Positions 23,055-58,769 are shown, numbered from the stretch's first letter. The stretch is DNA of 64,000 nucleotides from Daphnia carinata (GCF_022539665.2 NC_081331.1:10416001-10480000); one strand, 5' to 3'. Notes: generated from the letters alone by a model not told the origin. Numbers and translations: made by a program.

Positions 23055-23126
23055 AGCAGAGTGGCGCAGCGGAAGCGTGCTGGGCCCATAACCCAGAGGT
23101 CCGTGGATCGAAACCACGCTCTGCTA
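23055..23126 (+). tRNA. tRNA-iMet-CAT: Initiator tRNA-Met (anticodon CAT)
   Basis: AGCAGAGTGGCGCAGCGGAAGCGTGCTGGGCCCATAACCCAGAGGTCCGTGGATCGAAACCACGCTCTGCTA: A1:U72 pair, GGG/CCC anticodon stem, GATCGAAA T-loop typical of eukaryotic initiator tRNA, downstream T-runs as Pol III terminator. Confidence 0.98.
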
Positions 23127-27238: not shown

Positions 27239-30193
27239 ATGAACACTTCTGGTAAAATAGCTCTTAGTAGTTTTTACTTCTACACATTATCTGTATATTA
27301 ATCTATCATTTTCCAAATTGCTACAGCGTCGAATTCAAATAAATTTCAAGATGAACCCAAAACACCTGACGTGTCTGATGGTATGGGAGAATTTCCCATG
27401 TCGCAATCGTTCATGAATTTATCCATCGAAGAACAAGAAATGAAAAAGGAAGAATGGAGAAAAGAATTGGCTGAGGTACTATTTTTCTGTTACTTTACCG
27501 AATTGCCTATGGTTATAAAGAAACTACGTTTCAGGTGGAGTATGAAATTCAAACCATGCGCCAGGTCTTGACTTCAAAACTCAGGAAATCTTCAGAACTC
27601 AAACGGAAACTTGGTATCACTGCCTGGGGAGAATTTTCCAATGACATTTCGCAGGGATTGAGAAATGTCAAGGAGACTTCCACGTAAGTACAAAGAACCC
27701 AACACCCATCAGGGTTTTAAGAATTTATTTTTCTTCTTTTATGTATAAATATTACTGTGTAGTTATTGCACTGGCCGTTCAAGTTTGTTATTTGTTTTAA
27801 TTGTAGAACAACAGCATAAGGTTAAACGTAAGCAATAACAAAATTAAGAATTGAAGACAACTTATTTATCAACCAGTTCTCATGTCTTAAAGGTTATATT
27901 GTCAAGTTTTAAAAGTATTAACAATGAACCAGTAAAGAACTTTAAGCTGTTGTTTAAATGTAGCTTATATTTTCGTACTTGGTTTTGCATTCCTTAAGTA
28001 TCAGTAGTTGTTTTGACTGCTTGTTTTTTGGTTTTTGTCAGCTTCCAAACAATTGAGGAAAAGGTGGAGGAGGTTTCCAAGGCGATTTCTAGTGCTCCCT
28101 TGTAAGTATGTCGCTTCTTGCTTAGTGGGTCTTTATTTTCACTTGCATACGAATTTAGTCGAATTAAGTCTCTTTTTTTTTTCAAGAAAATGTTGAGAAC
28201 CAAACAGCTGGCTCGATACGGTACCCTAGTTCTGTGTGTAGTTATGTGTAGAAGTAAACCACAAGGAAGGCGGGCTTTTAATTGCCAGCTGGGGAGAGAG
28301 AGCGTGAGTGGTTGCGCGAGCGGTGCGGTAAAATAGCCTTGCGCGTGTCCATCGATCGGCGTCGTCGCTGGGCGTCTTTTCATCGGAATCCATTCGTTAA
28401 GGAAAGAAAAAGGCCAAAAAGAGGGAAAACGGGAAGGAGCAAAAAGGAGCTCGTCTCCCTGCCATCGGTGCGAGTTTGCCTCTCTCTCTCCGTGTCGAAG
28501 TGTCGCTGGTTTCAAGTCGTCTTGTTCGACTTGGATTGGTAGGAGAGGAAAAAGTTGAAAGCACTTCCATTCCGACCCTTTTATCCGCATACATATCTTA
28601 TCAAGTGTCATCGAATTTATTTGTTACTTGTTGTATTGATCGCAATCATGGACGCCGCTCGTGAAATGTAAGTTGGTGTCTTTTCTCTCTCCAACCGCCC
28701 CCTCTCTTCGTCAAGTACTTTTAGTAGACCGATTAGTGTAGGGGCAACTTGTTCTCTTATTTGGGGTATAATTGGATTGAAAGGTGCCTTATTACTCAAA
28801 AGCGATATTCTTTCCTGGTGGCGCTCTAAAGCCGGATTTTTAAAATCACACAGACGTTTGCTGACAACATTTGTATTGAATCTTTGTAGCGCGTTTAGCA
28901 AAACAGAAAATCATCAAGAAAGCAGTTGTTCCAACAAAGAGGTTATCAAAAACATAAATGTCTGAATCTGTCTAGGCCATTTAAAATGCCCATTCTTTGA
29001 TATCCAGACTGTCGAAAGGCTTATAGGGGTAAAGGGCAATCTGGGCACAAGAGAAACGGAAAGAAGAGGAGGCAGAAGAGTGGTGGTAGGAGAGGGGGGA
29101 TTTGTGCCCCCCTCCCTCTTCCGCCTCCACGTCATCCTACCCCTATACGCTCGAGTCTTTCCCAGAGTTGCAAAGCTCGTCGTTCGTGCACCCCGCCCTC
29201 CTCTTTCTCCTACTTCCTCCTCCTTGAAAAGTATCGACTCGACGTGCTTGACTATTCGTATTGATTTCCGTCCGTCCTCGCAAACCCCTCCCCCTATCTG
29301 CGCCCGTTCACTCTCGCTCAGAAAGAAACGTTAATACAGTTTCTCAGCTCTCTCCGTCTCTCATATCCTTTGCCATTTATTCTTTACGTTTTCTCTTTTT
29401 TCATTATTATTTTTTTTATTTCCATTTTTTTTTTGTTCGTCTACCAGATCCTGTACGTTGTGTATTGACCGATCTTGGATAGAACAACAAAAAAAAAAAA
29501 TAGCTGCACTTTTTATTAACTTAGATCTTTTCCTCCTTTCTTATTGTGGTTGTTGTTGCTGTTATTCATATACTCTTTTTTTTTCTCCTTTTCTGGCTCA
29601 TACACCGGGCTGATTGCGATCGATCTACTCAACCGAGTCCAGCTTGAGTCTTGGGGTTTTATGCGTCTATGCACAAACAACTGGGCAACTAAAGCCCCGT
29701 CGATTTGATTTTCTCTTTTGCTATTATTATTATGTTGTGTGTGTATGTGTGAAACGACGAAAGGTTTTGTCATGAACTAAAAATTAAAATTCTTTAGGTA
29801 CCAAAAAACGGAAACTGCGCTGAAGACGACAGCCGAAAAAACGACAACTTTCCTTGGTGGTATCACTGGAGGACTATCCGCCAAAATAGGAGCAGTTAAG
29901 AACTCCGACACTTTCCGTTCCATGGAAGAAAGAGTCGGCTCAGTCTACACTAATGTCAAGGTAATTTGATAAAAAATTAACAAAAGAAACAAAATTCGTT
30001 ACTGTTCTCCGTCTATTAGTCTAAGGTGGTCACGTCACGTTCCAGCTCGTCTCACGAGCTCGATGAAGCTCTCAAGGAAGCCGAGGCGCAGAGAGAAGCT
30101 GCCAATCTCTCTAGCGGTTTGGCTGTCTCGGGCTCATCGTCGACTGCTACTCCGACCACTACACCAACCCAATCGGAAAAGCCAGTGGCCTAA
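27239..30193 (+). CDS. TPD52: Tumor protein D52/D54 family coiled-coil protein
   Basis: Spliced frame EEWRKELAE|VEYEIQTMRQVLTSKLRKSSELKRKLGITAWGEF ... YQKTETALKTTAEKTT ... KIGAVKNSDTFRSMEERVG, matching the D52 coiled coil and D2 motif. TAA at 30191-30193. Confidence 0.9.
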
Positions 30194-31609: not shown

Positions 31610-34600
31610 ATGGCTGACGTAGTGGATCTCATCGATATCTTGGTGTAAGTTTTTTTCGTTTGGCCCTTTTCAATCTTTTTTTTTTTTTCCCTATCTTTTG
31701 TGCATAGATGTTATTTTCTTTTTTTCATACGCTAAAGTAGACTGATCGATATGATATCAATGCCTTGTTTTATCCGGTGCTTTGTTCAGTGCGCGTGAAA
31801 TTGGCACGTTCCCATTTTACTCAATGTGTGTTAAAAAAATCGATGTTAAAATGTAAATCAAAGCGGTTCGTAATCATGGCTGCCGTCCAGGAATTAAACG
31901 CATGTAAAATAGTTAGCCCAATGGCGATTCAATTTTCATTTTTTTTAATTCTTTTAGTCGAATTAAAAGGCGACGTCGTATCGATGTTGCGCTAGTCCTT
32001 TGTTTGTGTCTCCTGGCGGCTGCCGCGATTGAACCGCCTCTAACCGCCGACGAGAAGTAAGTGGGAACGATTAACGACGTTTAGGCAAATCAGTTTAATC
32101 ATTTACATTTTTTTTTCAATTAAAAGGTCACAAGAACAAGAAGCAAAGGAAAGATCATTCGCCACCGACATTCACAGTCCATCACCTCCATCTGGCTCGT
32201 TCCTGGAAAAAGCGAAAGAATCGGCAGCCGAAATGGTTGAACGGGTAGAAAGAGCCTTAAAAGAAACAGCGGCCACAGTCAAGAGTAGCATCAGTGACCG
32301 TATGCCAGAGGAGAAACACGAAATTAAACCTCCACAAGAATCGCTTTACGGCCAAGTTAAAGAATCAGCATCCGATACAGCGGAACGGATCAAGAGAGCC
32401 GTTGGCGCTGGCGAACAACCCGAAGAAATAGCTGAAAAGCCAGAATCTTTATTACATCGAGCTAAAGATTGGATAACTGGAACGACGCATGAAACGGCCG
32501 AACAAGTCCAACAGCAAATGCCACAACAACCTGATAAGTCGACTTTACAGCAAGCTAAAGATGCCACGGTTGATTCTGCCCAACGCGCTAAAGATGCAAC
32601 GATGGATGCCGCCCAACGCGCCAGAGAGGCTACCATGGATGCCGCCCAACGCGCTAGAGAGGCTACCATGGATACCGCACAACGCGCAAGAGATGCAACG
32701 ATCGAATCTGCCCAACAAGCTCGAGATGCTGCGTCCGGAGCGGCTCATCGTGTTCAAGAAGGAATTCAGAACGTGGGTAGCCAAGCCAGCGATACCTTGG
32801 GGTCAGCTTATGAACGGGCAAAGAATTTAGTTTCGCAAAATGCTGACCAGGCGCAGGAACAAGCACAGCAAGTCAAACAACAAGCGGAAGAAGCTGCACA
32901 ACAAGGACAACAAGAAGGCGGATCATTCTTCCAGCGGGCTAAAGAATGGGTGGCAGGCAGCGCTCACGAAGGAGCTGAAAAGGTGGAACAAATGAAAGAG
33001 CCTTCCACTTTCGAACAAGGAAGAGATGCTACTATGGATGCTGCCCAGCGCGCAAAGGAAGCCACGCTAGACACTGCTCATCAGGCTCAAGAGGCTGCCT
33101 CTCGAGCGGCCAGACAAGTTAAAGAAGGATTTCAAGATGCTGGAAATAGGGCCGGCGAGGCTGTTGAATCAGCCTACGATCGTGCAAAGAATTTAGTTTA
33201 TCAAACGGGCGATCAAGCTCAAGAACAGGCCCAGCGAGCTAAACAACAAGCAGAAGAAGCTGCTGGCCAAGGAAAAGAGCAAGCTGGATCTATCTTGCAA
33301 CGAGCCAAGGAATGGGTAACGGGTACAAGCCAGCAGGCTCAAGATATGGCACAACAAGCTAAAGATACGGCGTCAGAGAGTGCCCAGCAAGCTAGAGAGA
33401 AAGCAGAAGAGGCGGCCAAACAAGCCGAGGAGCAATCAGGATCCTTTGTGGAGAGGGCAAAAGATTGGCTATCTGGAACGAGCGATGAGGTTAAAAGCCA
33501 AGCTCAAGATACTGGAGAATCCATGTCTGATACGGCCCAGCAAGCTAAAGAATCAATTTCGGATGCTGCACATCGAGGAAAAGAAGGAGCTCAAAATGTT
33601 GGAGAACAAGGAGCTGAGCAAGCTGGATCCGTGTTCCAACGGGCCAAGGAATGGGTAACAGGAACGGGACATCAGGCTCAAGATATGGCCCAGCAAGCAA
33701 AAGATACCGCCAGTGGAACTGCCCGGGACACTAAAGAACAGGCCGAAGAGCTCGCAAGAGGAGCACAGGAGCAAACAGGATCTTTGGTTGATAAAGCCAA
33801 AGAATGGTTATCAGGAAGTGGTGAACAGGCGAAAGAGAAAGCACATGAGGCCGGCGAATCCATTTCTGATACGGCCCAACAAGCAAGAGATTCAGCGTCG
33901 GGGGCAGTTCGTCAAACGAGAGAAACAGCCGAAGACATTGGCAACAGAGGAACAGAACAGGCGGGATCGATTTTGCAAAGAGCTAAAGAATGGATCTCTG
34001 GAACTGGGGAGCAAATCAAAGACACTGCTCATCAAGCTGGAGAAAAAGCATCGGATACAGCCGAACAAGTTCAAGACGCTGGTGAGCGAGCAAGCCGAAA
34101 AATGCAAGAAGGAGTGCAGAAGGTGGTAGCTCCAGGTAAAGAACATATTGAAACTCTATACCAACGAACGAAAGAAGGGGCTTCTGATGCTGGTACAGAA
34201 GCCATGAGAAAGGCTCAACAAGCTAATCAGATGGCTATGGACACGGTCTGGAACTTGAAGGGAGCAACAGAGGAGACAGGAAGCAGAGGTGCAGAGGAAG
34301 TTGGTTCTTTCTTGAAACGGGCCAAGGATTGGGTTGTTGGAAGCGGAGAACAGGCAAAAGAAAAAGCACAAGAGGCAGCTGGAACTGTTGGCGATACAGC
34401 CCACCAGGTGAAGGAACAAAGTCAAGATGCTGCACAACGTGGAAAGGAAAATGCGGAATCGCTTTTGGAACGAGCTAAACATTGGGTTTCTGGAAGTGGA
34501 GAACAAGCAAAAGAAACGGCCCAACAGGCTCGTGATTCAGCTGCAGATGCTGCACGACGAGCACAAGAATCGGTGTCCAGCACTGGTCAGCAAGCGAAGG

Positions 34601-35380
34601 ATAAGATATCGGGAGCAGCTGAACAAGGCAAAGCTTACGTTGATCCTGTCTATGAGAAAGCAAAAGAATGGTTAACTGGCACAAAAGAGTCAGCAGAGGA
34701 AACTGCTCAACAGGCTCGAGACAAAGCTTCAGAAAAGTACGACCAAACTGGCGAAGCTATCAAAGACAGATCGGCTCAAATGGGAGAAAAGACTCAAGAA
34801 AAGATGGGCCAAGCTAAAGAGACGAGTGCTGGAGTTGTTCACAAGTTAGGTGATGCCATACACGATTTGAGGCACACCATCATGGAGAAACTTCACATCG
34901 AGAAACCTCATCACGAAGAAGGTTCTGTAACGGTAAATCTTAATTTAGATTCAACATGTAGGTGATCGCCATTAATTGGTTTGGTTTGGATTCAGGAAAA
35001 CGAACCTAGAAAACAAAGTGGAGGACTCAATATTCTACCTGTCGCTGATGCAACGTAAGACGTTTATCATCGAATTTTGTTTTATGTTTATAAACATTTT
35101 CTTACCATGTTTTTGTGTACAGATTGGAACAACAACCTAAAGCCAGCCGGTCAAAGGAAGACATTCCGTCTAGTGATGAAACACAGTCGTCTACCTTCTC
35201 CAAGTTAACAAAGCGTCTGAGCGCATACTTGGGATCTCATGTAACATATATTGGGTATTCAGTTAATTGACGCGTTTAAAATTTTTTTTTTATGTACAAT
35301 AGGAGAACATAGATAATTTCCAGCCGGACGAAGATGCTTTATCAGATCCCACACAAATAGAGGATCGAGTGGCCATATAA
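31610..35380 (+). CDS. Large LEA group-3-like repeat protein with predicted signal peptide (~1060 aa)
   Basis: Exons 31610-31644, 31970-32056, 32127-34932, 34996-35054, 35123-35240 and 35303-35380 join in frame (3183 nt). N-terminus MADVVDLIDILVRRRIDVALVLCLCLLAAAA. A/Q/E/K-rich body with 11-mer repeats (AKDATMDAAQR) and ten (R/K)AK(E/D/H)WxxG motifs. Confidence 0.8.
32554..32751 (+). repeat. Six tandem 33-bp coding repeats (11-aa LEA-type motif)
   Basis: AKDATVDSAQR/AKDATMDAAQR/AREATMDAAQR/AREATMDTAQR/ARDATIESAQQ/ARDAASGAAHR. Confidence 0.9.
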
Positions 35381-36772
35381 ATTCTCTCTTCGATAAATCG
35401 ATGATCAGTTTCCCGAACAAAACTCCATTTAGTGTGTAGTTCATATTTTAAAAACAGATATGTCATCTTAAGTGAAAAGGAAAAAAATTAATAAAAAAAA
35501 TACACGATTGTCTTGTTTGAAATAGAATTTTTGTCTTGGTTTGAATTTTATTGCCAAACTGCTTCGATCAACGTTAGATGGCGTGGAGCCATTTCGAACG
35601 TGCTTTTTTACCGGAAATTCCTCCGATTGTTGAGGGTAGGGTAAGATTCGAACAAAGGCATCACCACCCTGTCCTTTGAGTGGCCATTTTACCCTTGACA
35701 GCCGTGTGACCTCGGCGCAACGCGCGTCGCGCCATGTAAAGAGAATAGAATGCTGATTGCTTATTTACAAAATCAAAATGAATGGCTGATTTTGTATCCT
35801 ACTGTCTTTCTTTTGTCACATGTTTCAACCACTTCACTAAGTTTTGCAATTAATTTATCCGGCCTGAATGAAAGAAGGCGTCACGTTTTCGTTTTCACCC
35901 TACTGTAAGTATATATATTTTAAAACTTATATGATTACTGAATCTTATCGCAACAGTTACAATCATCATTATCATTTTCGGGGGTTTGGTTTTTCAATTG
36001 GCCTTTTTGCACTTACCCTCCATGTCGAAACGTTTGAGTGACGTCGCCTGACGAAGCAAGTCAAGTTAGGCTGGGTTTGAAGTTTACAATTTTTTCTGTT
36101 GGAACGTAATGTTGAAATCTAGACCGCATGACTAGATTTAAATTTCGAAGTACCTAAATTGATTGGAGGCCATTGGCCTGCAGCAATGGGGAAAATAATT
36201 TAGAAGGTCATGAGAGGTCATTGCCATCTTTTCTTTAAAACGGTAGACGTACTTAAAAGTCAAGTGGGAGTGAAAATTCGCATCGTCAAATTCCAAAAAT
36301 AAAAATCACCGTCCTCCCTTGAGGCTTTGGGTAGGTTTTATAAGCGCAGAACTTTGATCGTCTTTTGTTTTCCTCCATTTTGTTTTCTGCTAGGGAGACA
36401 AAACCAAGATGTCGTCTCTGTTCCCCAACATTTTCGACTGCGCAGTCTCTGCCCGACTAAATTGCTTGTTTCAATTGGTTGATCAAGGTTGATTGGAGAT
36501 TGAGGAATGGAAGTTGCAGTCGAAAAGGTAGACACCATTAAGGTGTGGGATGAGAAATTTTAACCTCGCTCGACCTCGAGACAAAATCCTAGTCCCCCAC
36601 CGGCGGCGTTGAGGGAGAGAACAAGGGTAAGGGAGGCTGAGAGAAGGTGTGGAGAAGCTCCCCATAAAGAAGCTCGTCGCTGCACTCATCAAGTCAATTC
36701 AATTCTTGCATTCGAACTGTCAATTGTGAGCTCATTTTTCTCCCGTTTCTTAGTTTACAGCTATGGTGGATT

Positions 36773-36856
36773 TCGTCGATGAGTGAGGATCGTTAGTCGC
36801 GTTGGAAACGTTCCTCAAGTTAAGAGTTCGTGACTAGATCTGACACTCGTCCACGA
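36773..36856 (+). ncRNA. mir-279: pre-miRNA, miR-279/286 family (copy a)
   Basis: 3p arm TGACTAGATCTGACACTCGTCC (36831-36852, seed GACUAGA) pairs with 5p GATGAGTGAGGATCGTTAGTCGCG; lower stem TCGT/ACGA. Confidence 0.9.
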
Positions 36857-36919
36857 CGTCGACTCTCCTTACTCCGGTGATTTTCTTTCGAAATTTGAAA
36901 CGGTATGTTTTATTCATAT

Positions 36920-36993
36920 TTGCTTGTTTCTTTGGTGGTCTAGCTGTATGAGGTTTTTAAGTTCATAAAGCTAGATCAGCAAGGCAACTAGTG
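36920..36993 (+). ncRNA. mir-9: pre-miRNA, miR-9/79/4 family
   Basis: 5p TCTTTGGTGGTCTAGCTGTATGA (36929-36951) differs at two positions from canonical miR-9. 3p ATAAAGCTAGATCAGCAAGGCA (36965-36986) is miR-79/miR-4-like. The arms are complementary. Confidence 0.95.
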
Positions 36994-37040
36994 GAGTTGT
37001 GTTCAGCGACATTTATATTACACATCTCATCTTCAACATA

Positions 37041-37150
37041 GAGTAACGGGATTTAGGAACTACCGCTTGTGGTTGATTGAATTGTCGGTCTCATTAATCG
37101 ATTCAATTGTCTATTTCTATCACAGTCGTAGTTACTAGATACCGATGCTC
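37041..37150 (+). ncRNA. mir-2944: pre-miRNA, K-box (miR-2/6/11) family, miR-2944/miR-11-like
   Basis: 3p TATCACAGTCGTAGTTACTAGA (37118-37139, seed AUCACAG); 5p TAGGAACTACCGCTTGTGGT is miR-5/2944-5p-like; extended lower stem GAGTA..CGG/CCG..TGCTC. Confidence 0.88.
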
Positions 37151-37193
37151 GTTCGTCTCTTTAATTTATTTCTATTGTCCTACACACAGCCCC

Positions 37194-37275
37194 CCAGTGC
37201 TGAGTCTAGTGGTTGATGTGCTAGACTTACAGCTTGAATTTTCGGTTGCATAGCACCACGGGATTCAGCCGCTGG
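37194..37275 (+). ncRNA. pre-miRNA, miR-29 family, miR-998/995-like
   Basis: 3p TAGCACCACGGGATTCAGCCGC (37251-37272, seed AGCACCA) pairs with 5p GCTGAGTCTAGTGGTTGATGTGC; lower stem CCAGT/GCTGG. Confidence 0.88.
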
Positions 37276-37342
37276 TGCGTCGTGGATTTTTAATTATTTA
37301 GAAATATGGAAAATGTTTATAAAATGTGTGGATTCGAGACAG

Positions 37343-37413
37343 GCAACAGGGGAGAACCTGACTCAGTTTGATTCATATAATTGTTAGTCACTGGGTACGT
37401 TCGCCCTTGGTGA
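37343..37413 (+). ncRNA. mir-309: pre-miRNA, miR-309/3/318 family
   Basis: 3p TCACTGGGTACGTTCGCCCTTG (37388-37409, seed CACUGGG) pairs with 5p CAGGGGAGAACCTGACTCAGTTTGA. Confidence 0.85.
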
Positions 37414-37844
37414 ATGGATCTTACATTCCTTCAGTTTAGTTTGAATTTGAATTTCTTCCAGATGTCGCTGAAAAAATATCCAACCGTCGAGTATGGTTTG
37501 ACCTTATTTCTTTTGGTATGCATTAAACTTTCTTTTTATGACCTCCCTCCGTTTCTTCCGAGTCCCGTTAACTGTCGTTGACCTGGAATGGGGTCGTACA
37601 CGTGTGGACGTTTGGGCCAATCCTGTGCGAGCTCTCTAACTTGCCTGAGCTCGTGAACTTGTTCCGGCCGTTTTACCCTCTTTTGACCCCTTTTGGAGGG
37701 GGGTGTGTGTAGTCTGTGTAGGGTAGTCGAGTGGTTCCCGAACTTTATTCTACGGGCTTCCTTCGACAAAGCAACATCAGAGAAGCATCGCTCCAAAATT
37801 GGCCCATTTGGATGCACATGGAAGTGGACAGCTTGAGCGTGCGT

Positions 37845-37915
37845 CAGTCGGCGAGTTCGGTTTTAGTTATATTTTTAATTTATTCGTATGACTAGAACCC
37901 ACACTCGTCCGGTTG
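37845..37915 (+). ncRNA. mir-279: pre-miRNA, miR-279/286 family (copy b)
   Basis: 3p TGACTAGAACCCACACTCGTCC (37889-37910) pairs with 5p GGCGAGTTCGGTTTTAGTTATA; lower stem CAGTC/GGTTG. Confidence 0.88.
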
Positions 37916-37990
37916 CTGTATTCAATTTCATCTTCATCGAGTACTCTTCTACGTTTTTTTTTTATTGCAAGTGTAGTTTCTTAACAGTTC

Positions 37991-38073
37991 CTTGGTATTT
38001 ATCGGTGAATTCAACCGTGGTTTTGTTGATTTAAAGATACATCACCGGGTAGAATTCATCCAGAACTATCAAG
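37991..38073 (+). ncRNA. mir-36: pre-miRNA, miR-36 family (nematode miR-35-42 seed)
   Basis: 3p TCACCGGGTAGAATTCATCCAG (38042-38063, seed CACCGGG) pairs with 5p GGTGAATTCAACCGTGGT; lower stem CTTGGTA/TATCAAG. Confidence 0.88.
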
Positions 38074-38500
38074 CTTCATGCTTCTTTGTCATTGATGCCT
38101 TTGTAAATATTGTAATGTACTATCAATATTGGAAAATACAACTGATTACATGTCTGAAACTTGATTTGCAATATTTTATAAGTTGCAAAGTAAAAGAAAG
38201 TAAAGTTGGTAACTTGGTAAACTGTTTAATGAACTACATTTTCTGAATGTATAATGAATAACTGGTAAGTGATTTGTAAATACATCTGGTAAAGAACATT
38301 CAATAATGAAAGTTTATATTTTGAAAAACTTACCAGCAAATGTATGATAAGCCTTCTGTACTGTTTCTTGAAATTGGCAGCTAATGGACAATAAGTACAC
38401 ATTTTTTAATACTGCTTCTTCCAATTGTATATTGGACAACTAAATTTTCACATACAAAAACTCGTTTACAAAAAATAGCTCTTTGGTTTCAGCAACTCGT

Positions 38501-39486
38501 TTACAACGAAGTAGCTTTAGGTTTGAGCAACAAAATTATCTCATAGCATTCGTCTAGGTTAAAGCGAATTTTGTACGAAGTAGCCGATGTAGGGTCAGCG
38601 TTTGTGTCAACGGTTAATAGCGTTTCCACGTCACACCTGTCCTCTACAAAAGAAACAATGATTTTCATATTAGACTGCTGAAATATACTGCTTAACTTAC
38701 CAAACAGTTTAGTTACTTCTTCTACAGACACACTGAGAGGAGGCCCTGGATATTGTGATTGATCATATTGCATGGTGTCAAGCAAATAGGCGAAATTTTC
38801 GTTCAACAGGCTCTTCAATAACTTTGCATAACTTTGTGTTAAACAAAATAGAACATTGCTGTGAAAATCAAAATTCCAAGAAAAACTGCACAAAGTTACA
38901 AACCGAACTCTGTCTTCAGGTAAAAGTGCAACCAGAGATCCACGATCCCAGATTCCATCAAACTTGCCACAGACAGATGTGTCCAAAGCAAATAAATCTG
39001 AATGATAGATTTTTAGACGTCCATCATCACTCTACATACAAGATTTAGAACACATCAAGCTCCAGCCTTGTAATGGTAAGTGATTACTTACAGCTTACTT
39101 ACAATGTAGAATTGCAGGGCTCCCTCACTCCCTTTTGTGTAGGTTATTCCCTGTTCTTGAAAGAACTCCAAAATTGGTTTCTCTACTCCATCTAATCCGA
39201 CCACTTCATGTCCTTGATCATAGATCCTAGAACAGAAAATAGGTTTGCAAAACGTAAAAATGAATTAAGCAAATATTACAGGCTGAAGATAGAGGAAGCA
39301 AAAGTTTACTTGCCATTTTAAATCATGGCTTTTGCCACACAAAGGGACAAATATCCGCAATTTTCCCTCTTTAATTTGTTGAACGCGATAAAAAAAACTC
39401 ACAAGAAATCTATTTACGTCAGATTTATGCCAAGGTGAATCCTCTGCTTGCCATCTCTTGGACCAATACTCGACACGCTCCTCCAT
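38501..39486 (-). CDS. TPMT: Thiopurine S-methyltransferase-like SAM-dependent methyltransferase
   Basis: YWSKRWQAEDSPWH, RIFVPLCGKSHDLKW|IYDQGHEVVGLDG, GKFDGIWDRGSLVALLPEDR, YPGPPLSV. Five exons, the first intron GC-AG. Confidence 0.92.
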
Positions 39487-40637
39487 CTTTCGAATAGTAA
39501 TCGTAAATGGCTTGTAAATTCGTTTTCAACGAACCACGTCTGATTCTAAAATAGCAGAAGCCGACGACTATCTCACGAGTCATGCTCCCGTTTGTCACAT
39601 TCTTGAAATTTACTCACGCTGCCATTCAACGTTAATTCATAAAGTACGAGTATAGGAGCACGATCGTGCTCGTGTTAAAATATGATCATCGACGATCATA
39701 TTTTCTTTGCAATTATAGAAACAGCTTTTGCGCCAGGGAGGGATTCTTACTTAAAAATCCCTAGCTACAGATGACATTTTTTAGCATAGACTACCTCTTT
39801 TTGCCTGTTTTCAAGCAATGTTTTGTTAAGGCTACCATCTTGTGTTTAGCTTTAAGCTCTTTTATTCTCAAACGCCAAACCTGTTCTTCACTTTGAGCAG
39901 CTCTGCATGTGCATTTTAAGTCATATTTTGTACCCTATGATTGAACTAGACCGATTGGAATATTTTTTTTAATGTGAAGAGGAGGAAAGGGTTGTTTGAG
40001 TTTTGGAACGGTTTGTTTTTCTCCGAAAATGCTGTCACTTACAGTTTTCTGTTTGACTATGTCATTTTCTTAACATTATCTCTTTGCACAGTTCGAATGT
40101 TTTTAATTCTATATTTTTTTTAATTTTTATTTTGCCAACTATTGATTTACCAAGCTTTACAAAAAATGCACGGCGAGAGTGGAGTCGAAATTGTTGGGTT
40201 TAAGGCGACGTCATGTAGGGCAACTAATCTATAACAGTCAACATTTCAAAACATTCATACCTTTGGTACTCCGACTGTTCCCTTTTTGGTCCCCTACAGC
40301 GATAAGCAAGTGTTGTGCGGTGATATCGAAGTTGGTTTCCGATAATGTAAATTCTCATGTTTTAGTTTCAAAAAATAAATCCAGGTCTTCATCGACCGAC
40401 GATTTGCTCGAACCAAATATTGAACAATATACCGCAAAAAGCCTTTATATTAAGACATACGCACGGCACTTTTCATTATAACTGTTCGAGAACAGCGTTA
40501 CATTCTCCTATTACAATACATGCAAATGTATTACATAAAGTAACAACGTGGATTCCCTTAACAAATCTTTTCATTAGAGGATTGCTTTCAGATAGTATTG
40601 TTGCCATTATTGATAATAATAATTATATATTTCGTAT

Positions 40638-42253
40638 TTAGAGCGACTTGCTGTGCGTATCACGTAGGATTGCGTCGGCTATTCCGACAGCTGTGCGATC
40701 CAACCTGAAAAGCAATAATTAATGAGCAAACTTTAACGAGAAAACGGGAACGGGTTTATGAACTAACCAGGTAACAGGACTGGGTTTGAGCAATCCACCT
40801 TCATAAAAACCCAAATGGCCTCCATGCGTCGTCAAAATGAAGGCGGACCTATCGCGGCTTTCTAAATAGAAAAATAAGAGCAAAGATTAAAATTTACCTT
40901 ACAATTTTGCGGTGCGAATTTTTCGATTTTTTTACTAACCGGCATATTGCTTAGGCCACGTAAGCAAAGGTTCGGGTATAATAGGGTCATCTTGTGCGTT
41001 GATAAATACGAGAGGAATTGTTATATTTTCCAGGTACAGACAACAGCTAGTTTGTTCGTAGAGCTCGTTAATTGATTCGTATCCAGCTACACGGCTGTTA
41101 AACAAATAACAGATCTTATGTTAAATTACATTTCTATCACTGATTGACTTTTGAATTTTCAACATTGTACCGAGTATAAGCATCGTCGAACTCCGGTAGT
41201 GTTGCAGCTGACAAAATGCTTCGTTCGCAAAGCTGATAACGAGCTTTTACGTCTTCGGTCAAAACAATTTGCTGATGGGCCATTAGAACACGCTTCATAT
41301 TTTCGGTCATGATGTACAAGTAAAATCTTCGGAAGTTGGACCATAGCAACATATGCTGCATGGCACTGTGGGACAAAAGTCAAAGTCAAGAATGATAGGA
41401 TGAAAAAAAAAAGTTGCGTTATCTCCATACCCGAGCGCGTCGTAACCCTGACAAACTGAGATTCCCCCCATGATATTTTTTGGCATATCTGGTCGTTTCT
41501 CGCCCATATACTTTGTAACAATGTTGGCACCCATACTAAAACCTACTAGAACCATCCTTGTGTGTGCGTAGTTCTCCTGCAAGTTGATAACCATTTCATG
41601 GAAATCCTTTGGTACAACCATAACTGAAAATACGATGGGAAGTCAATTTGATGGTTTTCATTGCTCCGATGTGATTGATAGCTACACATCTGTAGCCTTT
41701 CCTCTGTGCATGGTGTACAAATGTGCGTATATAAATTGACTCACTTGAGTTGCAAATGCCAGGACATAATACTAAAGTAACATCCTCTGTTTGAAAAATG
41801 AAATTATATTAAAGTGGTGAATAATAACATAATTTGTACTAAGACTCCAACTACCTCCAGATGAATGGACAGATAGGGGCTGGTAAACATCATAGGTTAA
41901 TGTAGCTCCATCATCCAAGAGAAGGGACACCCTCTCCCCAATTGGCCAAGGACATTTCATTCTTCCAATCAAACTGTGCATGACAGTTTGAATGTGGCCA
42001 CTAAAACCCCATATACGTGTTGGTATATATCTAAATGAAGACATTTTTGTCAGTTTCGGGGAAATTAAATGCACAACGCTTCAACTAGGGAAACTTACGC
42101 TTGCTCTAGTTCTGGTGCAGCTTCCTTCAGCAAAGCAGCAAATTTCTCATCTTTGCACAGAATCTCAGGTTTTCTTGGCTGGCTCGCAATATTTAGGATT
42201 CGGAAAATGAATAACAAAATAAACGCGATAAAAGCCACGATGAACGGACTCAT
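40638..42253 (-). CDS. ABHD2: Abhydrolase domain-containing protein 2 (Hydr2-like); +1 frameshift at ~41608-41610 in this sequence
   Basis: N-terminal signal-anchor MSPFIVAFIAFILLFIFRILN, YIPTRIWGFSGHIQT, LCPGICNSSESIYIRTFV, nucleophile GFSMG, INAQDDP, HGGHLGFYEGG. TAA at 40640-40638. Confidence 0.9.
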
Positions 42254-44317
42254 GACGATGATAAAATTTTCCTGAAAAGATAAACTTCGTAAAAAATTCT
42301 TGCAGTCCATGCTGATATCGTTTTCATACCTTACTGTAGCTAAACGTTGTTGAAAACGTATTCCTCTCGTTACTCCCCTCATTCACCGCCTTCCCAAGAA
42401 GACCAAGAGCAACTCCCAACACGACTATGTGTTCACGATTTTTAACGTCTCCTAACAACAAACCCACCCGAGCCGCCGACTATAACCTTGATAACAGAAG
42501 CAGCGCTATCGTCATCTAGCGGGAAAAACTTTTGGCCAAACCTACGCTGCTGTGCTAAAAAATGGTACCGTTGGATTAAAAAAATGTTGAAGTAATAATT
42601 TCCTGCGGTGAACTAGCACCGGTAAATAAATACAAAAATAAACCGAACGTTACGGAAGGAAAATTACGACAAGGCGAAGTCTTCGATTCTGTAGGGAGGT
42701 TTCAGGCTGGCAGTTGCTTAGGGTTCTATTAATGTTTACTTTGACAGTCTTAATGATTCAATATGGGTTGACAGATCTTTGCCTGGCATTTGTGACATCA
42801 TCACACCCAGAAAGGTCAATTCTTGTATATGTATCTTACGTGCGATTAACCTCCAAGAATCATACAAATGACATATCAACTTATTAGGACCAATTCCGAT
42901 TTTTTTAAATTTAAACAAGTTTCTTGAACTGAATCTCCGAGATGACAACGTAACGTCCTTCAAAGCTCTCTAATAAGGTGTGGAGATGCGGAAGTGCCTT
43001 AGAAAGAAAAAGGCCATGCAAACCAGCATGCACCTAGCCGCAAGCATGCTTGCTTGGTTGTTCGCTTGACGAGTTCAAGGTTTCGTTCTTCAGACTCTTG
43101 AAACTCACAATACTGGGTGCGTCTGACACACGAGCAACAGTTCATCTAATATTTAACCATTTAAAACTACTAATAAGATATGTTCCCAATAAATCTAAAT
43201 ATCTTCTCAAGCAAAACGTTTTCGAACATGTGCTATCAGTTTGTACCATATGGCGATCATTTCAGAAGATGAATTTGTGCAGAACTATCCAAGCAAGTCG
43301 TAGACTGATGAAAAAGGAGTGTATGTGAACAAGTACCCTTAGATTCCATAACGGAGATCCAAAGGGCTTCGTCTCATTTGGACTCTTCGGTAAAGGTCAT
43401 CGACACTGCGAGCTGACGAAGGCCTTCTTCACACACACAGACACACACACACCCGGCAACGGGGATATTGCTGAATATGTATGTAGTTGTGGCTCGTTTC
43501 CCTTATACCAGTGTTCGATATATCGGCTGCTTCCTCCTTTTTTTTTATTGTGCTTCCAGTATTGGTTTGCTATTCATTTTGACCAGAATTAGCAGGAGTT
43601 AATGATTCATTTGTATGAACTCTTGTTTCCATGGAACACAAGCAAAACATAATGCATTCCAAACAACTCAGGTGATTGGAGTACTGTTACCGTATAAACA
43701 TGGCTCCGTAGTCTATACACACTCCTTCCCACTAGTCGAATCTCGTTTTCGTTGTTTATTTTCCCAGTGACCAGCCAGCACTTGACTAGCTTAGGTTTAT
43801 AACCATTTCTTTTTTTTTCATTTAAGAGCAGCCACCATCTGGGTACAGCGGTTTGTTTGTTGCCATTGTAATGTGTCTAAAAGGAAGTTGATTGCAGAAT
43901 CATAGATAGAAGTCCATGCTGCCACAAGTTCAATAGCACTGCTCGATATCGTGAACCTAGTTAGCGAATATCGACTTAGGAGACGAAAGTCTTCTATGTT
44001 ATCGTTTAAAAGTCGTAACACCATCCACGAGTACTTTTATCAAACCAAGTTTATCTGACAAACTTAAGAAAACTAGGTAGAAATGTTTCCATTAATATTT
44101 CGTTCATCCCAACTTTTATTTTCAATAGATATTGATAGTATTTACTTCGTTTCTCATCTCTGATAGCCGTAGTCACTGAGGCACCTCAACCGGCCTCAAT
44201 GGAACGCATTATCAGCACCTATTTTACCAAGAGGATCTGACGCCGCAATCATTTATCAGGAACCGGGAACAAAGTTGGCTGTATTGATTTGTCAGTAGTA
44301 CGACGTCCTTTGCCAAC

Positions 44318-47287: not shown

Positions 47288-50200
47288 ATGTACCCTGTTG
47301 GCCAGCGTAAGTTGCCCTCGATTCCGAATATGATTTAGACGACCGCCCTACAGGCACAGTGATTAAAATTTTCATACAATTATTATCTGAAGAATCGTTT
47401 GTTGTTGTTCGCTAAGGTTTCATTAAAATGTTTTTTAACCTTGATTTTGCATTCCTTCCGTATACGACAGTGCTGGATGACTAACACAGGGAATGGCAAG
47501 GGCGTGTGAGCGTCGATAATATGCTTCAGTCCACTTCCATACGTTTAGTTTACTTGAGATTAAAAACGTTTACTGGGGGGTTGGAAACGATCGTTGAACG
47601 TAATCTACTAGTAAGTCGGATCATAATCTTGGCAATTGTGACAGAAAGCTTCATATCTCTCAGTTTTTGTGAGTTGCATCATTGAGTGAAATATAACCAT
47701 GGAGTTAGTAGTAGAGGACAATGAGCTTAAAAGTTGATACCGTTTTATGTTATTATATATTTGAGTGTTTGTTGCCATATACATATTCTAAAAATTTCTT
47801 TTCCCTTTGCAGCAGGAGCACTTGGCCCTTCAGGTGTTGGAGCCCAGTCACTTGTATCCAGTGGAGGTATTGGAAGTGGAAGCAACAGCAGTAGCAGCAG
47901 CACCAGCAGTAATTGTGGGACAAGTTTGAGTGGAGTGAGTGGCGGTAGTGGAAGTGGAGGAGGTACTGCTTTAATGACTCCCATGGCCCCTATGGCCCCG
48001 GTCCCACCTATGATGCCTCCAACACAGCAACCACCACCAATGGCTTCGGCCACGCCGCAAGCTGCGGCACCAGAACTTCCTATGTTTGTTTGTCCCCGTC
48101 GTCCCAATCTTGGTCGTGAGGGTAGACCCATCATGCTTCGAGCCAACCATTTTCAAATATCGATGCCAAGAGGCTACATTCACCACTATGATATCAGCAT
48201 TCAACCAGACAAGTGCCCGAGAAAAGTCAATCGGTGAGAATTAGCCAGGGGGTGTTAGTGTTGTTCACTGTAAAGTAACATTGTTAGTAATGAATTCGTG
48301 ATTTACAGGGAGATTATTGAGACTATGGTGCACGCCTACAGCAAAATTTTTGGAGCACTGAAACCCGTCTTTGATGGTCGCAGCAACTTGTATACTCGAG
48401 ATCCTCTGCCAATTGGCAATGAACGAGTCGAGTTGGACGTTACGCTGCCTGGCGAAGGAAAAGATCGTGTGTTCCATGTTGCTATTAAATGGCTGGCCAA
48501 AGTGTCCCTCTATGCCCTCGAGGAAGCCTTGGAAGGCATGTCAACTACGTGCTCGTTCTTTGCGTATGAATAATTACAATGTTATGTGATTTCCCTGTAG
48601 GTCGCATTCGTACGATTCCAATGGATGCCATTTTGGCTCTCGACGTGGTTATGCGCCATTTACCTTCTATGACTTACACTCCGGTTGGCCGGAGTTTCTT
48701 CTCATCACCTGATGGCTACTACCATCCTCTGGGTGGCGGTCGCGAAGTCTGGTTCGGTTTCCACCAGTCTGTCCGCCCTTCACAATGGAAGATGATGCTA
48801 AATATTGACGTTTCGGCTACGGCTTTTTACAAGTCACAACCAGTGATTGAATTTATGTGCGAGGTCTTAGACATTCGCGATGTTAACGAGCAGAGGAAAC
48901 CATTGACGGATTCTCAGCGAGTAAAATTCACCAAAGAGATCAAAGGTGGGTTCGCTGGTGGGTTGTCGCCTAAAACTAGTTTGGTAGGTACCTTTTTATT
49001 AAACCACTGTTTTTAAATCATCACAGGCTTGAAAATCGAAATCACTCATTGTGGAACAATGAGACGAAAATACCGTGTATGCAACGTCACACGTCGTCCG
49101 GCTCAAATGCAGTCCTTCCCACTGCAGTTGGAAAATGGCCAGACTGTCGAATGCACAGTGGCTAAATATTTCTTGGACAAGTACAAAATGAAACTGCGCT
49201 ACCCGCATCTGCCCTGCCTGCAGGTTTGTCTAACTTTTAGTGTAACTTGTTGCGGTTAAATGCATCAGCTCGATTTTCCTGATATTTTTATTAGGTTGGA
49301 CAAGAGCACAAACATACTTACTTGCCATTGGAAGTTTGCAACATTGTTGCTGGGCAGCGGTGCATAAAGAAACTAACGGACATGCAAACATCGACTATGA
49401 TCAAAGCTACTGCCCGATCGGCCCCCGACCGCGAGCGTGAAATCAATAACCTAATACGAAAGGCTGACTTTAATAACGATCCCTACGTCCAAGAATTTGG
49501 CCTGACCATATCCAATAGGTAAATGATTTTTACCATGTTCATTCGTGTCGGGGTTCTCATCGCGTCATTATCTCTTCGTTAGCATGATGGAAGTGCGTGG
49601 TCGCGTGCTTCCCCCACCCAAACTACAATATGGGGGAAGAACCAAGCAACAGGCACTGCCCAATCAAGGTGTCTGGGATATGCGTGGCAAGCAATTCTTC
49701 ACCGGTGTCGAGATTCGTGTCTGGGCCATCGCCTGTTTCGCCCCTCAAAGAACAGTGCGTGAAGACGCGCTGAGAAATTTCACCCAGCAATTGCAAAAGA
49801 TAAGCAATGACGCCGGCATGCCCATTATTGGTAAGAACAACAAAAATGTTTCCTTTGTCTAGTGTCCATTGGTGATCAAATTTGAATTTTTAGGTCAACC
49901 GTGCTTCTGCAAGTATGCCACCGGTCCCGATCAAGTGGAGCCCATGTTCCGCTACCTCAAGTCAACCTTCCAAGGTCTCCAACTGGTGTGTGTTGTTCTA
50001 CCCGGCAAAACTCCCGTCTATGGTACGATCAGTTCCATCAATCTGTTTCAGTTCTTTGGCTTGAAATAATAAAACGCATTCTTTAATTTTCATTGATCAA
50101 CAGCCGAAGTCAAACGTGTGGGAGACACAGTCCTGGGAATGGCCACACAGTGTGTCCAAGCAAAAAATGTCAACAAAACGTCGCCTCAAACTCTGTCCAA

Positions 50201-51598
50201 TTTATGTCTGAAGATCAATGTTAAACTTGGCGGTGTCAACAGTATCCTCGTTCCTACTATTCGTCCGAAGGTAATAAATCACAATACGTGCTTGATGTCG
50301 GATGTTCTTGGTTTCTAATGTGTGATTTTTTCTCCTGTTTATTCATAGGTGTTCAATGAACCAGTTATTTTCCTCGGAGCCGATATAACTCATCCGCCGG
50401 CTGGTGACAACAAGAAACCCTCGATCGCAGCTGTTGTCGGCTCGATGGACGCTCATCCTTCGCGCTACGCCGCAACCGTTCGCGTCCAGCAGCACCGCCA
50501 AGAAGTCATTCAAGAACTCAGTGCTATGGTTCGGTAAGAAAAGCTTTTCCTTCATCATACGTTCCATGAAGTAATGTGAATGGCTAACAAATTTTTGTTT
50601 CTAATTATTGCAGAGAACTTCTGATTCTGTTCTACAAAACAACACGTTTCAAGCCAAACCGAATTATTATGTACCGCGATGGCGCCAGTGAAGGCCAGTT
50701 TAGCACCGTAAGTTGTTCTGCTAATTAGAAGTATTTGACCAGTCGAGTTTGCAAGTCGCAAAATTTAAAAAATTAACAATTTAATTCCCAGGTTTTGCAA
50801 CACGAGTTAACCGCCATCCGCGAGGCATGCATCAAATTGGAACCGGACTACAAACCGGGTATCACCTTTATCGTTGTTCAAAAGCGCCATCACACAAGAC
50901 TTTTCTGCGCCGACAAGAAAGAGCAGTCGGGCAAGTCTGGAAACATTCCCGCCGGTACCACCGTCGATGCGGGCATCACACATCCCACCGAGTTCGACTT
51001 TTACTTGTGCTCGCATCAAGGCATTCAGGTAAATCGAGGATTCCAATCTCATTCACAACTATATTGTTTGATTATAACATAGATCAATGCTTTATTTTAA
51101 TTTCTTATAGGGCACTAGCCGTCCGAGCCACTACCACGTTCTGTGGGACGACAATCACTTCGACGCTGACGAACTGCAGTGTTTGACTTACCAACTGTGC
51201 CACACTTACGTCCGCTGTACTCGTTCCGTCTCCATTCCGGCGCCGGCTTATTACGCCCACCTTGTGGCTTTCCGCGCTAGATACCACTTAGTGGAGAAGG
51301 AACACGACAGGTAATTTTGTCAAGTGTGGTCGGCAAACAGTGAACGTATTAATCTCGATTAACTTTTATTCCCGTTTACAGTGGGGAAGGATCACTACAG
51401 GATTGCATTAAGAGTTACACCAGGTAAATAATTCTTCTAATCGTTGGTTTCCAAAACGTGTTGATTCTAATTCGATTTCCATCCAATAGTGGAGAAGGTT
51501 CGCATCAAAGCGGAAGCAGCGAGGACCGCACGCCTGGCGCCATGGCTCGCGCTATCACTGTTCACGCCGATACCAAGAAAGTCATGTACTTTGCTTAA
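47288..51598 (+). CDS. AGO1: Argonaute-1 (miRNA-class AGO)
   Basis: First coding exon MYPVGQ (47288-47306); very close to insect AGO1 through the N, PAZ, MID and PIWI domains ([85 protein letters not shown]). DEDH tetrad intact. Confidence 0.98.
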
Positions 51599-53708
51599 AA
51601 GCACTATCATCAAATTCACCCTCCTTCCCAGTAAGTTGCCGTTTGGTCATCGCGTGTAAATTGGATCGGATGAGAATGGAGCAGAAATGGTTTGTAATAT
51701 TTCCACGTGACTTGACGCTGTTTTCTCTAGCTATTTTGGAAGGTCAGCTTGTGAGCACAATATCTGACACCTATTTTCATGTCATCGCCACCGCCACCAC
51801 ATCCCTGAATCTTGCGTGCAAGGAGGAGCATTTCACATCCCATTAACAGAGCCATCCCCGTCACAAAACAAAATGTCCACGGCCGTCAAGTCTTTCATGT
51901 ATTTTTCACCCTTATAGCAAAAGTCGAAGCATTTCGGTGGGGTTTTTAATCTAAACTTTGCTCTTCAAAACTATCTATTTGCCGTCTGGATTTTCGGAAC
52001 ACCTAAAATCCTTCAAAGAAAATCCATCGATGCGAGCACATTCGTGTTGATGGTCGCAAAAACGAAGAAAACGAAAAACAAAAAAAAGAAAAGACGTGTG
52101 AGAAAGGATTAGGGCATCAAGCGAAAACGGACTTCGTTTAGTAGCTTTCGAATGGACAATTGCATTTCCCTCCCAGCGTGTGGATGTAGTACGGACCAAG
52201 CAAACATAGAATCGTAATCAATTAGCATTTCCTTAATCCTGACCTATCGTAGCTACTTAAGAGACAAGACAAAATTTAATTGACATTTTCTTCGTTACCG
52301 ATCTGTTTGTTTATCAATCACTTTCTTTTTAAGAACGCTCCAAGCTGTCCTTCCACCTCTTGGTGTTAAAGCATCTGTTTCGTTTCTCGGGAACTGAAAT
52401 GACATCTGTATTTGAACTGGTGCACGTAAATTCAAACCTAATCCTTAAAAAATTATCTTGGATAGAGAACCCTCCGCATACGTTTGTTCTTTGATGCACT
52501 TCTAATCAAATTTGGTGGGAAAAAAATCGCCGATCCCCTCTTCCGCGCTACAAACGTCTTTCATCCTCCATTCAAAATGTAAAAGATAAAGCGAGCAAAA
52601 CGGAAAGTAGGGAGAGAAAGAATAGTACGCGCATTTACAATCTGCAAAGAAAGCCATTTTGCCATGACAAAAATATCGTTATTCCCCAATAATAGTTCTT
52701 CTCACACCGACATCGACTACTTTCCTAAAAAAAAAAAAATAATAATAAAAAAAAAAATGCGTGATTGCAAGTGTGAATGGCGTATGTGTTGTGGAGTGCG
52801 AGCGGTCCCACCACATTAGGGCAGCTCTTAGAACGTGAGTTGACGCAAATTTTTCAAAACAATATTTCGAGGACAAAAAAAAAATATTCACCCACCTATT
52901 CGGCGTTTCGCGTCAGCCCGAAGAAGTTAGTTGGCAGTGTAATACTACTCCTCGACCCCAATCAAAGTTTGACCTTCTCTTCCTTTTTTTTTTTTAAAGA
53001 ATATCTTTTCATAACATGTCTTGGTTTTTGTTTGACTGGATCGTGGAAAAGCGTTTTGTAGCATTTAGTTGTGTGCGTTGTTCTTACATTTTTTTTTTCT
53101 ATTTTGGAGGGTAGGGAGGAATTCCTGCGAGCGTTTAATAGCCATATCGTTTCTCTGCAAACGTGAGAAATATCAATTCTTTCTTTTCTTCCCTTTCTCT
53201 GCGTCTATCTTGTTCCTTCTGTCTCTCACACACACTATAGTTTGGCTTTGGTTTCTCTCCTTTGTCGCCTGCCGCTCTTTGTCACTGAGTTATGTTCCTC
53301 GTGTACCTGTAGCTGCTTTATAAACAAAAGAAAAACGTGCCGAATTGTTCTCTCGGCTACTATTTGCTAATTAGTGAAACCTGAAGGAATTCAATTTTAG
53401 ACGAGTCAGAATACCATTGACATATCTGATCCATTTCTTTCGACGACAATAGTTTTTTTTCTCTAATTATCTCTACCCGTCCTTGTCCCCCTCTCCTAAA
53501 AAAAGAAAATCTTTCCTCCGCTCACGTTCCCGATCCCTCCGACAATTCGGCTTTTGAAAAAAAAAATATGATTTTGGGTTTAATTTTACCTCTACTGCAT
53601 CATATTCCCTCCTCGCCATTTACCTCCAACATGTATGTATGTGCGTGAGTGTATTTTTCATGTTTTTTCTGTTTTATGTTGCGCATGGTGACCCTTTTTC
53701 CTTCTACA

Positions 53709-54951: not shown

Positions 54952-58769
<3,818 letters not shown>

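Follow-up and report, generated by a model that had tools for sequence, protein, structure and literature searches.

A conserved cluster of seven microRNA hairpins in Daphnia carinata and its probable kinship with the mir-309-type clusters of insects

Seven hairpins and their branchiopod orthologs

The stretch of DNA analysed here (the window) comprises 64,000 nucleotides (nt) of the Daphnia carinata genome, NC_081331.1:10416001-10480000, and all coordinates are counted from its start. The + strand carries at 36761-38073 a cluster of seven microRNA (miRNA) hairpins, about 1.3 kilobases (kb) long, flanked on the 5' side by a + strand repeat-protein gene and on the 3' side by a minus-strand TPMT gene ending near 38500. 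The locus is the ortholog of an already published cluster. It is likely that this intergenic cluster, the order of which is kept in Daphnia and Triops, yields one primary transcript and is active mainly in the ovary, the egg or the brood-pouch embryo. The hairpins are listed below, with 5p and 3p denoting the arms; L003, L004 and L009 are Daphnia-like contigs described further on.

36778..36853, + strand: pre-mir-279e; 5p star 36778-36801, 3p guide 36831-36853 with seed GACUAGA, 3p 23/23 identical in L004; Rfam mir-279, E 6e-4
36929..36987, + strand: pre-mir-9b; 5p guide 36929-36951, 3p (miR-79/Brd-box type) 36966-36987; Rfam mir-9, 60.2 bits
37054..37139, + strand: pre-mir-2944; 3p guide 37118-37139 with K-box seed AUCACAG, 41-nt loop region; Rfam mir-2944, E 0.098
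37199..37272, + strand: pre-mir-998 (miR-29/285 family); 3p 37250-37272; weakest fold (z -2.2, 7/200 shuffles); Rfam mir-998, E 1.3
37349..37409, + strand: hairpin with miR-309/3 seed (counterpart of D. magna nov-12 and Triops n521); 3p 37388-37409 with seed CACUGGG, 22/22 identical in L004; no Rfam match at E <=10
37850..37912, + strand: pre-mir-279b (counterpart of Triops 279c); 3p guide 37889-37912; Rfam mir-279, E 7e-5; conserved in L003, L004 and L009
38003..38063, + strand: pre-mir-3791 (miR-36 seed CACCGGG); 3p guide 38042-38063; Rfam mir-36_2, E 0.017, and antisense mir-3478, E 0.0028

These are seven genuine miRNA hairpins in a row on one strand. All of them fold as single stems, with energies between -26 and -41 kcal/mol and z scores between -2.2 and -5.7; the number of shuffled sequences folding as well was, in the order of the hairpins, 0, 0, 0, 7, 1, 0 and 0 of 200. 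With the arm ends of D. magna placed by eye on the folds of the window, guide and star share 16-20 paired bases in each hairpin, the threshold being at least 16; the 3' overhangs on the Drosha side are 2 nt in 7/7 hairpins, and those on the Dicer side are 2 nt in four and 1-3 nt in the rest. An initial annotation of this DNA had named eight arm starts, and the seeds it gave are all present there on the + strand. Copies of the seven 8-mer seeds number 8 in 36761-38073, whereas 2000 shuffles gave 0.18 on average and never more than 3; the comparison is post hoc, as the seeds were drawn from the region itself.

The Rfam search of the entire window at the gathering score yielded only mir-9 and a tRNA. 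At E <=10, the stretch 35000-39500 contained 15 matches, and six of the seven hairpins had a + strand match to a family, mir-9 alone being above the gathering score. The mir-2944 and mir-3478/3791 models align with their hairpins beyond the seed. The third hairpin had been labelled miR-2944(11); a K-box member is indeed present, but it is mir-2944, not mir-11. The absence of a credible open reading frame (ORF), also proposed initially, was borne out: the longest + strand ATG frame in 36600-38200 has 55 amino acids (aa), and a 108-aa minus-strand frame over the cluster has no Pfam match. Several further candidates were rejected. A micropeptide starting from the ATG at 37462 was ruled out, its frame being broken in L004, and a further miR-279-like 8-mer at 36129 was dropped as not conserved in L004. 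The long spacer was rejected as the site of an eighth miRNA because of its fold (z -0.53, a 9-bp stem only) and the lack of an Rfam miRNA match; none is present in the inspected part of the D. magna pre-miRNA list (PMC6828783).

A metagenome scan with a 19-nt pattern of the miR-3791 arm returned 10 loci, and three of them, L003, L004 and L009, are Daphnia-like orthologs. L004 includes the full cluster in the same order and with the same flanking genes, at 74.5% identity overall, and L003 and L009 include only its 3' end. The other seven loci contain no cluster and no well-paired hairpin, and no insect or non-Daphnia cluster was found among the 10. In the comparison with L004, the one full ortholog, identity was 158/158 for the 3p arms, 154/161 for the 5p arms and 120/161 for the loops; the short spacers had 27/49, 18/40, 22/33, 24/50 and 30/64 identical positions (45-67%). 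Functional miRNA genes are expected to show just such a decrease from guide to star to loop.

The initial annotation described the cluster as hidden. This is incorrect, because the cluster was published for D. magna (Coucheron et al. 2019, PMC6828783) and Triops cancriformis (Ikeda et al. 2015, PMC4338350). On the minus strand of D. magna scaffold 2190, mir-279e, 9b, 2944, 998, nov-12, 279b and 3791 are annotated with reads on both arms, which are the same seven members in the same order and strand relation as in the window. The gaps between 5p starts are 151/125/145/150/501/153 in the window and 149/125/149/159/507/144 in D. magna. The 3p arms match by eye, and loops, some star bases and spacers differ. 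Thirteen miRNA clusters of D. magna keep their order in D. pulex. In the accessible main text of that paper, the cluster is neither discussed nor connected with mir-309~6. For Triops, Table S9 lists miR-3791/279c/n521/n511/998/2944/9b/279e on the minus strand; read 5' to 3', the seven counterparts follow the order of the window, and the cluster is egg-biased. It has one extra member, n511, whose seed is absent from the window cluster, a length of 1929 nt and weak co-expression. The 3p guide of mir-3791 is the same in the window, D. magna and Triops.

Discrete small-RNA read stacks, predicted by the initial annotation, exist in the published D. magna data on both arms of all seven hairpins; the reads come from D. 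magna and Triops, not from the species of the window. The nov-12 star is represented by 1, 1 and 4 reads only. Six of the eight predicted 5' ends agree with D. magna, and two are shifted by one base there: miR-9b 3p starts at 36966 rather than 36965, and miR-998 3p at 37250 rather than 37251. Triops, unlike D. magna, has the U-start miR-998 and the A-start miR-9b-3p that had been predicted, and 6/798 adult reads of D. magna miR-998-3p are listed as a U-start variant. The miR-998-3p of D. magna starts one base earlier and therefore carries a shifted miR-29-family seed. A branchiopod miR-998-like gene conflicts with the published insect-specific origin of miR-998. The arms of mir-9b gave 7325 (5p) and 386 (3p) adult reads in D. 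magna, and in Triops both arms are used.

A second D. magna cluster, sc548 (nov-2/nov-3/mir-309/nov-4), is adult-biased and carries miR-309 and Brd-box seeds (PMC6828783); its members include a second hairpin with CACUGGG and a Brd-box hairpin with a dominant 3p arm. It is apparently mirrored by n527/n518/n502/n520/n535 of Triops, tightly co-expressed there. The 'novel' sc548 members look like unrecognised copies of the miR-3 and miR-9 families.

The adults sampled in D. magna were chosen with visible eggs and the subadults without (PMC6828783). The six conserved members take ranks 1-6 of 66 in Table 2 for egg-bearing adults over egg-free subadults, with ratios of 7.5-11.5-fold against a median of 0.93 in the other 60; relative to the mean of both younger stages, they rank 1, 3, 4, 5, 6 and 8. 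The 309-type nov-12, the lowest-expressed member with 103 adult reads, shows values of 2, 17 and 60 for its 3p arm across the stages. In Triops, miR-3791 had 1,825,700 egg reads and 35,480-70,510 in other stages (PMC4338350). Of the normalised expression, the share found in eggs is 0.92 for 3791, 0.89 for n521 and 0.76 for 279c, and by the normalised values six of the eight members are highest in eggs; miR-9b, whose normalised rows disagree with the raw counts, was left out of this count. The oocyte or early-embryo bias proposed initially is matched by a tight, egg-linked co-regulation in D. magna, with egg-bearing adults as a proxy. A bias towards the egg or early embryo, as in the insect mir-309-type clusters, is likewise seen by proxy, in egg-bearing D. 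magna adults and, for six of the eight members, in the Triops egg stage.

Transcription, candidate regulatory elements and possible function

Eight of the 16 listed sequencing runs were examined. In seven of them contigs lie on the cluster; these all come from relatives, and their RNA nature is a guess. Run X13 had no piece over it. Run X1 yielded a single 1312-nt contig covering 36904-38085 unbroken, from mir-9b to mir-3791, i.e. six of the seven hairpins, and in this run the introns of the upstream gene are skipped. Two pieces from run X2, 36773-37283 and 37347-38085, together cover all seven hairpins. The 258-fold depth of the 3' contig was set aside, as the 1947-nt record continues for about 1.2 kb beyond 38085 and probably reaches into the TPMT transcript. 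No splice joint was seen inside the cluster in any examined run, leaving a spliced host transcript without support. RNA-like contigs of the upstream gene terminate in poly(A) near 35486, and low-depth RNA-like contigs begin at 36610 and 36638, 5' of the candidate core promoter. The contigs fit an unspliced primary transcript without proving one.

Three conserved non-coding elements may be regulatory:

35631..36610, no strand assigned: upstream conserved blocks (35631-35730, 36201-36300, 36441-36610) with AGGTCA/TGACCT half-sites; candidate nuclear-receptor enhancer
36640..36735, + strand: candidate core promoter; TATA-like CATAAAG 36663-36669, Inr-like TCAATT 36694-36699, block 36700-36729 30/30 identical to L004
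37455..37700, no strand assigned: conserved non-miRNA block in the long spacer, 197/246 (80%) identical to L004; candidate enhancer, internal promoter or element of the primary miRNA transcript

The TATA-like and Inr-like calls follow the consensus motifs. Several upstream blocks and 37455-37700 are 74-80% conserved outside the hairpins. The latter has three exact TGACCT sites that are kept in L004; it also contains a stem of 9 bp (37626-37634 / 37647-37655), which is invariant, has a variable loop and shows no covariation. In an IR1-like element at 36215-36227 both halves are kept and the spacer base is changed in L004. AGGTCA/TGACCT has 6 copies in 35500-38100 against 1.3 expected from the density in the window; AGGTCA is the commonest conserved 6-mer outside the hairpins, with 5 copies in 58 conserved runs, a count reached by any 6-mer in 35/2000 shuffles. 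That these blocks are nuclear-receptor elements is a lead rather than a result, suggested by the consensus and by one ortholog. The conserved non-coding blocks also hold GAGCTC palindromes.

Several observations weigh against a single, egg-active transcript. No examined contig spans all seven hairpins, and contigs reveal neither the strand nor the ends of a transcript, nor whether it was a single molecule. Each D. magna stage is represented by one library of whole animals, in which ovary, oocyte and embryo are not separable. Among the Triops members, 279e, 2944 and 998 show only a mild egg bias (0.33-0.52) and n511 is highest in larvae; the Triops cluster is listed with a correlation of only r > -0.19 (PMC4338350).

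In the standard pathway, Drosha and Dicer-1 process the stems, and AGO1 represses targets via the guides. By analogy, Drosha and Dicer-1 would cut the seven stems, AGO1 would load guides with the 279 seed (twice) and the miR-9 5p, K-box, shifted miR-29, miR-309 and miR-36 seeds, and the loaded guides would repress egg and early-embryo mRNAs. That the job of the cluster might be the clearance of maternal mRNAs at zygotic genome activation is a tentative proposal and somewhat doubtful. This function has been shown only in flies, genetically, and in beetles, by target enrichment. The expression data fit maternal loading and zygotic onset alike. In Parhyale the maternal mRNAs are under-targeted by miRNAs (preprint 10.1101/2021.06.25.449901), which speaks against clearance. 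So does the count of TAGteam (Zelda) sites, 0 in 35486-36780 and 40 in the entire window for seven heptamers; the fly mir-309~6 is Zelda-driven. The 5p dominance of miR-9b, the weak co-expression in Triops and the presence of a second 309-type cluster also count against that role.

How the cluster is driven can be read in other ways. The conserved spacer block could act as an internal promoter or enhancer driving mir-279b and mir-3791 apart from the first five hairpins, making two transcription units. In favour of this, the block combines 80% conservation and repeated TGACCT sites without being a miRNA, the 3' members in Triops are far more egg-specific than the 5' members, and several contigs start near the spacer (X8 at 37480, X9 at 37440). 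However, contig starts are not transcript starts, the X1 contig crosses the block, the adult/subadult ratios in D. magna are uniform over both halves, and n521, the Daphnia counterpart of which sits 5' of the block, is one of the strongly egg-specific Triops members; two units are improbable. A serious possibility, though still short of probable, is that the cluster would be a maternal, hormone-linked oogenesis unit, with nuclear receptors driving it in the ovary and the miRNAs being loaded into eggs, rather than a device of first zygotic clearance. The leading place of AGGTCA among the conserved 6-mers, the IR1-like site with its variable spacer base and the lack of Zelda sites in 35486-36780 are consistent with this. 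The homologous clusters of beetles are most abundant in oocytes (PMC4691753), and miR-309a of the fruit fly Bactrocera acts in the ovary under juvenile hormone (PMC9518882). Nevertheless, 20-hydroxyecdysone (20E) left Bactrocera miR-309a, which responds to juvenile hormone, unchanged (PMC9518882), and zygotic expression fits the D. magna counts equally well, since the adults bore visible eggs. Motifs are not binding, moreover, and these were taken from consensus sites and compared in a single full ortholog.

Kinship with the insect clusters

Relatives of mir-309~6 were defined by Mohammed et al. 2014 (PMC4238352) by four seed families and traced to Hymenoptera; they reported no more basal arthropod cluster with three of the four families and considered miR-998 insect-specific and absent from D. 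pulex. Ninova et al. 2014/2016 (PMC3923130, PMC4691753) added mir-3791 and linked three insect versions to aconitase; the 2014 paper dated the assembly of the cluster to insects and regarded the fly content and order as a Drosophilid-specific rearrangement. An origin of MIR-309 with pancrustaceans is already in print (PMC5121899).

As the initial annotation proposed, all four seed families of the fly cluster (309/3, 279/286, 9/4, K-box 5/6/2944) are present here, so the cluster has the four families of Mohammed 2014 plus miR-3791. That annotation also counted miR-36/3791 as an extra family; compared with insects it is not one, as it is present in the beetle mir-9d~3791 and bee mir-3478~318 clusters too. 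It is probable that the Daphnia cluster shares an ancestral cluster with the insect mir-309~6, mir-9d~3791 and mir-3478~318. We also consider it reasonably probable that a four-family egg cluster with miR-3791 and a miR-998-like member predates the branchiopod/hexapod split, its order having been kept from Triops to Daphnia.

The likeness is not one of detail. The Drosophila mir-309~6 differs from the window cluster in order and copy numbers, and Tribolium mir-9d~3791 / mir-279e~2944c and Apis mir-3478~318 are rearranged and duplicated relative to it (PMC3923130, PMC4691753). The miR-998 present in the window cluster is not among the families listed for the Tribolium and Apis clusters. The insect mir-9d~309b and mir-9c~318 adjoin aconitase, whereas the window cluster lies between an LEA-like gene and TPMT; the aconitase-linked versions are mir-994~318, mir-9d~309b and mir-9c~318, and fly mir-309~6 is not among them. 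Two further points weigh against the kinship: no aconitase was found among the 59 window ORFs scanned, which are not all its ORFs, and the guide of fly miR-4 is the 3p arm, whereas miR-9b of D. magna is 5p-dominant. Classing the cluster as the ortholog of fly mir-309~6 would not be warranted, given that no aconitase was seen among the 59 ORFs and no TAGteam site upstream, that miR-9b is 5p-dominant and that a second 309-type branchiopod cluster exists. The initial interpretation is partly supported.

Two alternative explanations can be set against these readings. Chance seed matches in AT-rich intergenic DNA could have imitated a cluster: only 1/7 hairpins passes the Rfam gathering score, and short matches do arise by chance, as in the 7/10 metagenome loci matching the 19-nt pattern. 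Folding and the invariance of the arms contradict this explanation and the published D. magna small-RNA reads refute it, so its probability is negligible. The likeness to insects could instead be convergent, or the true counterpart could be the second branchiopod cluster (sc548; n527/n518/n502/n520/n535 in Triops), which has a hairpin named mir-309, the second hairpin with CACUGGG and a Brd-box hairpin that, like fly miR-4, is 3p-dominant, and is adult-biased in D. magna and tightly co-expressed in Triops. Seeds are short, the order is unlike that of flies, no aconitase synteny was found in the 59 ORFs, and clusters acquire copies repeatedly (PMC4238352). Yet of the two branchiopod clusters only the one studied here has mir-2944, mir-279 and mir-3791, the similarity of the mir-2944 and mir-3791 hairpins to the insect models extends well past the seed, and five shared families in one 1.3-kb unit with a common egg bias are hard to reach twice. 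Both branchiopod clusters may share one ancestor, as is thought for the three beetle clusters. Convergence, or the second cluster being the true counterpart, is unlikely.

If the ancestry is shared, the early-embryo cluster would have originated before insects, and this branchiopod-insect link, with the pre-insect origin of the mir-309-type cluster, is possibly the unclaimed part. No published statement linking the branchiopod cluster to mir-309~6 was found in the accessible literature, though Hearn 2018, MirGeneDB, miRBase or supplements could hold one; the accessible parts of PMC3763532, PMC5637074, PMC8126727, PMC4987109, PMC8741983 and PMC9175491 contain no such link. The 1.3-kb cluster would offer a compact deletion target in Daphnia for the question whether miRNA-driven clearance of maternal mRNAs is ancestral. 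The combined scenario is rather improbable: a pre-insect origin together with activation in Daphnia by nuclear receptors through AGGTCA (one set of sites inside the transcript) rather than Zelda, the insect clearance cluster having been recruited from a hormone-linked oogenesis unit.

Other genes of the window

The crustacean origin assumed initially was corroborated by the adjacent TPMT, whose four best protein matches are from D. sinensis, D. galeata, D. pulex and D. pulicaria. Directly 5' of the cluster, 32044-35486 (+) is a 973-aa stop-to-stop frame with Ala/Gln/Glu-rich repeats, syntenic in contig L004. A homolog search with this protein gave two weak matches only; LEA-like or apolipoprotein-like is our own reading, with no Pfam call behind the LEA-like label.

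Pfam searches across the window revealed exons of GATA, TPD52, TPMT, alpha/beta hydrolase, Argonaute and MCM3. TPD52 at 27302-29969 (+), TPMT at 39265-39525 (-), alpha/beta hydrolase at 41137-42382 (-) and MCM3 at 55224-58769 (+) are ordinary genes. The Argonaute gene at 47731-51846 (+), with domains N, L1, L2, Mid and Piwi, is presumably AGO1-like; it lies about 10 kb 3' of the miRNA cluster, a proximity that is probably a coincidence. Tandem GATA genes are suggested by zinc-finger exons at 5289-5588 and 13309-13644 (-), which lie about 8 kb from each other (span 5286-13644), and a tRNA gene with the CAT anticodon is located at 23055-23126 (+).

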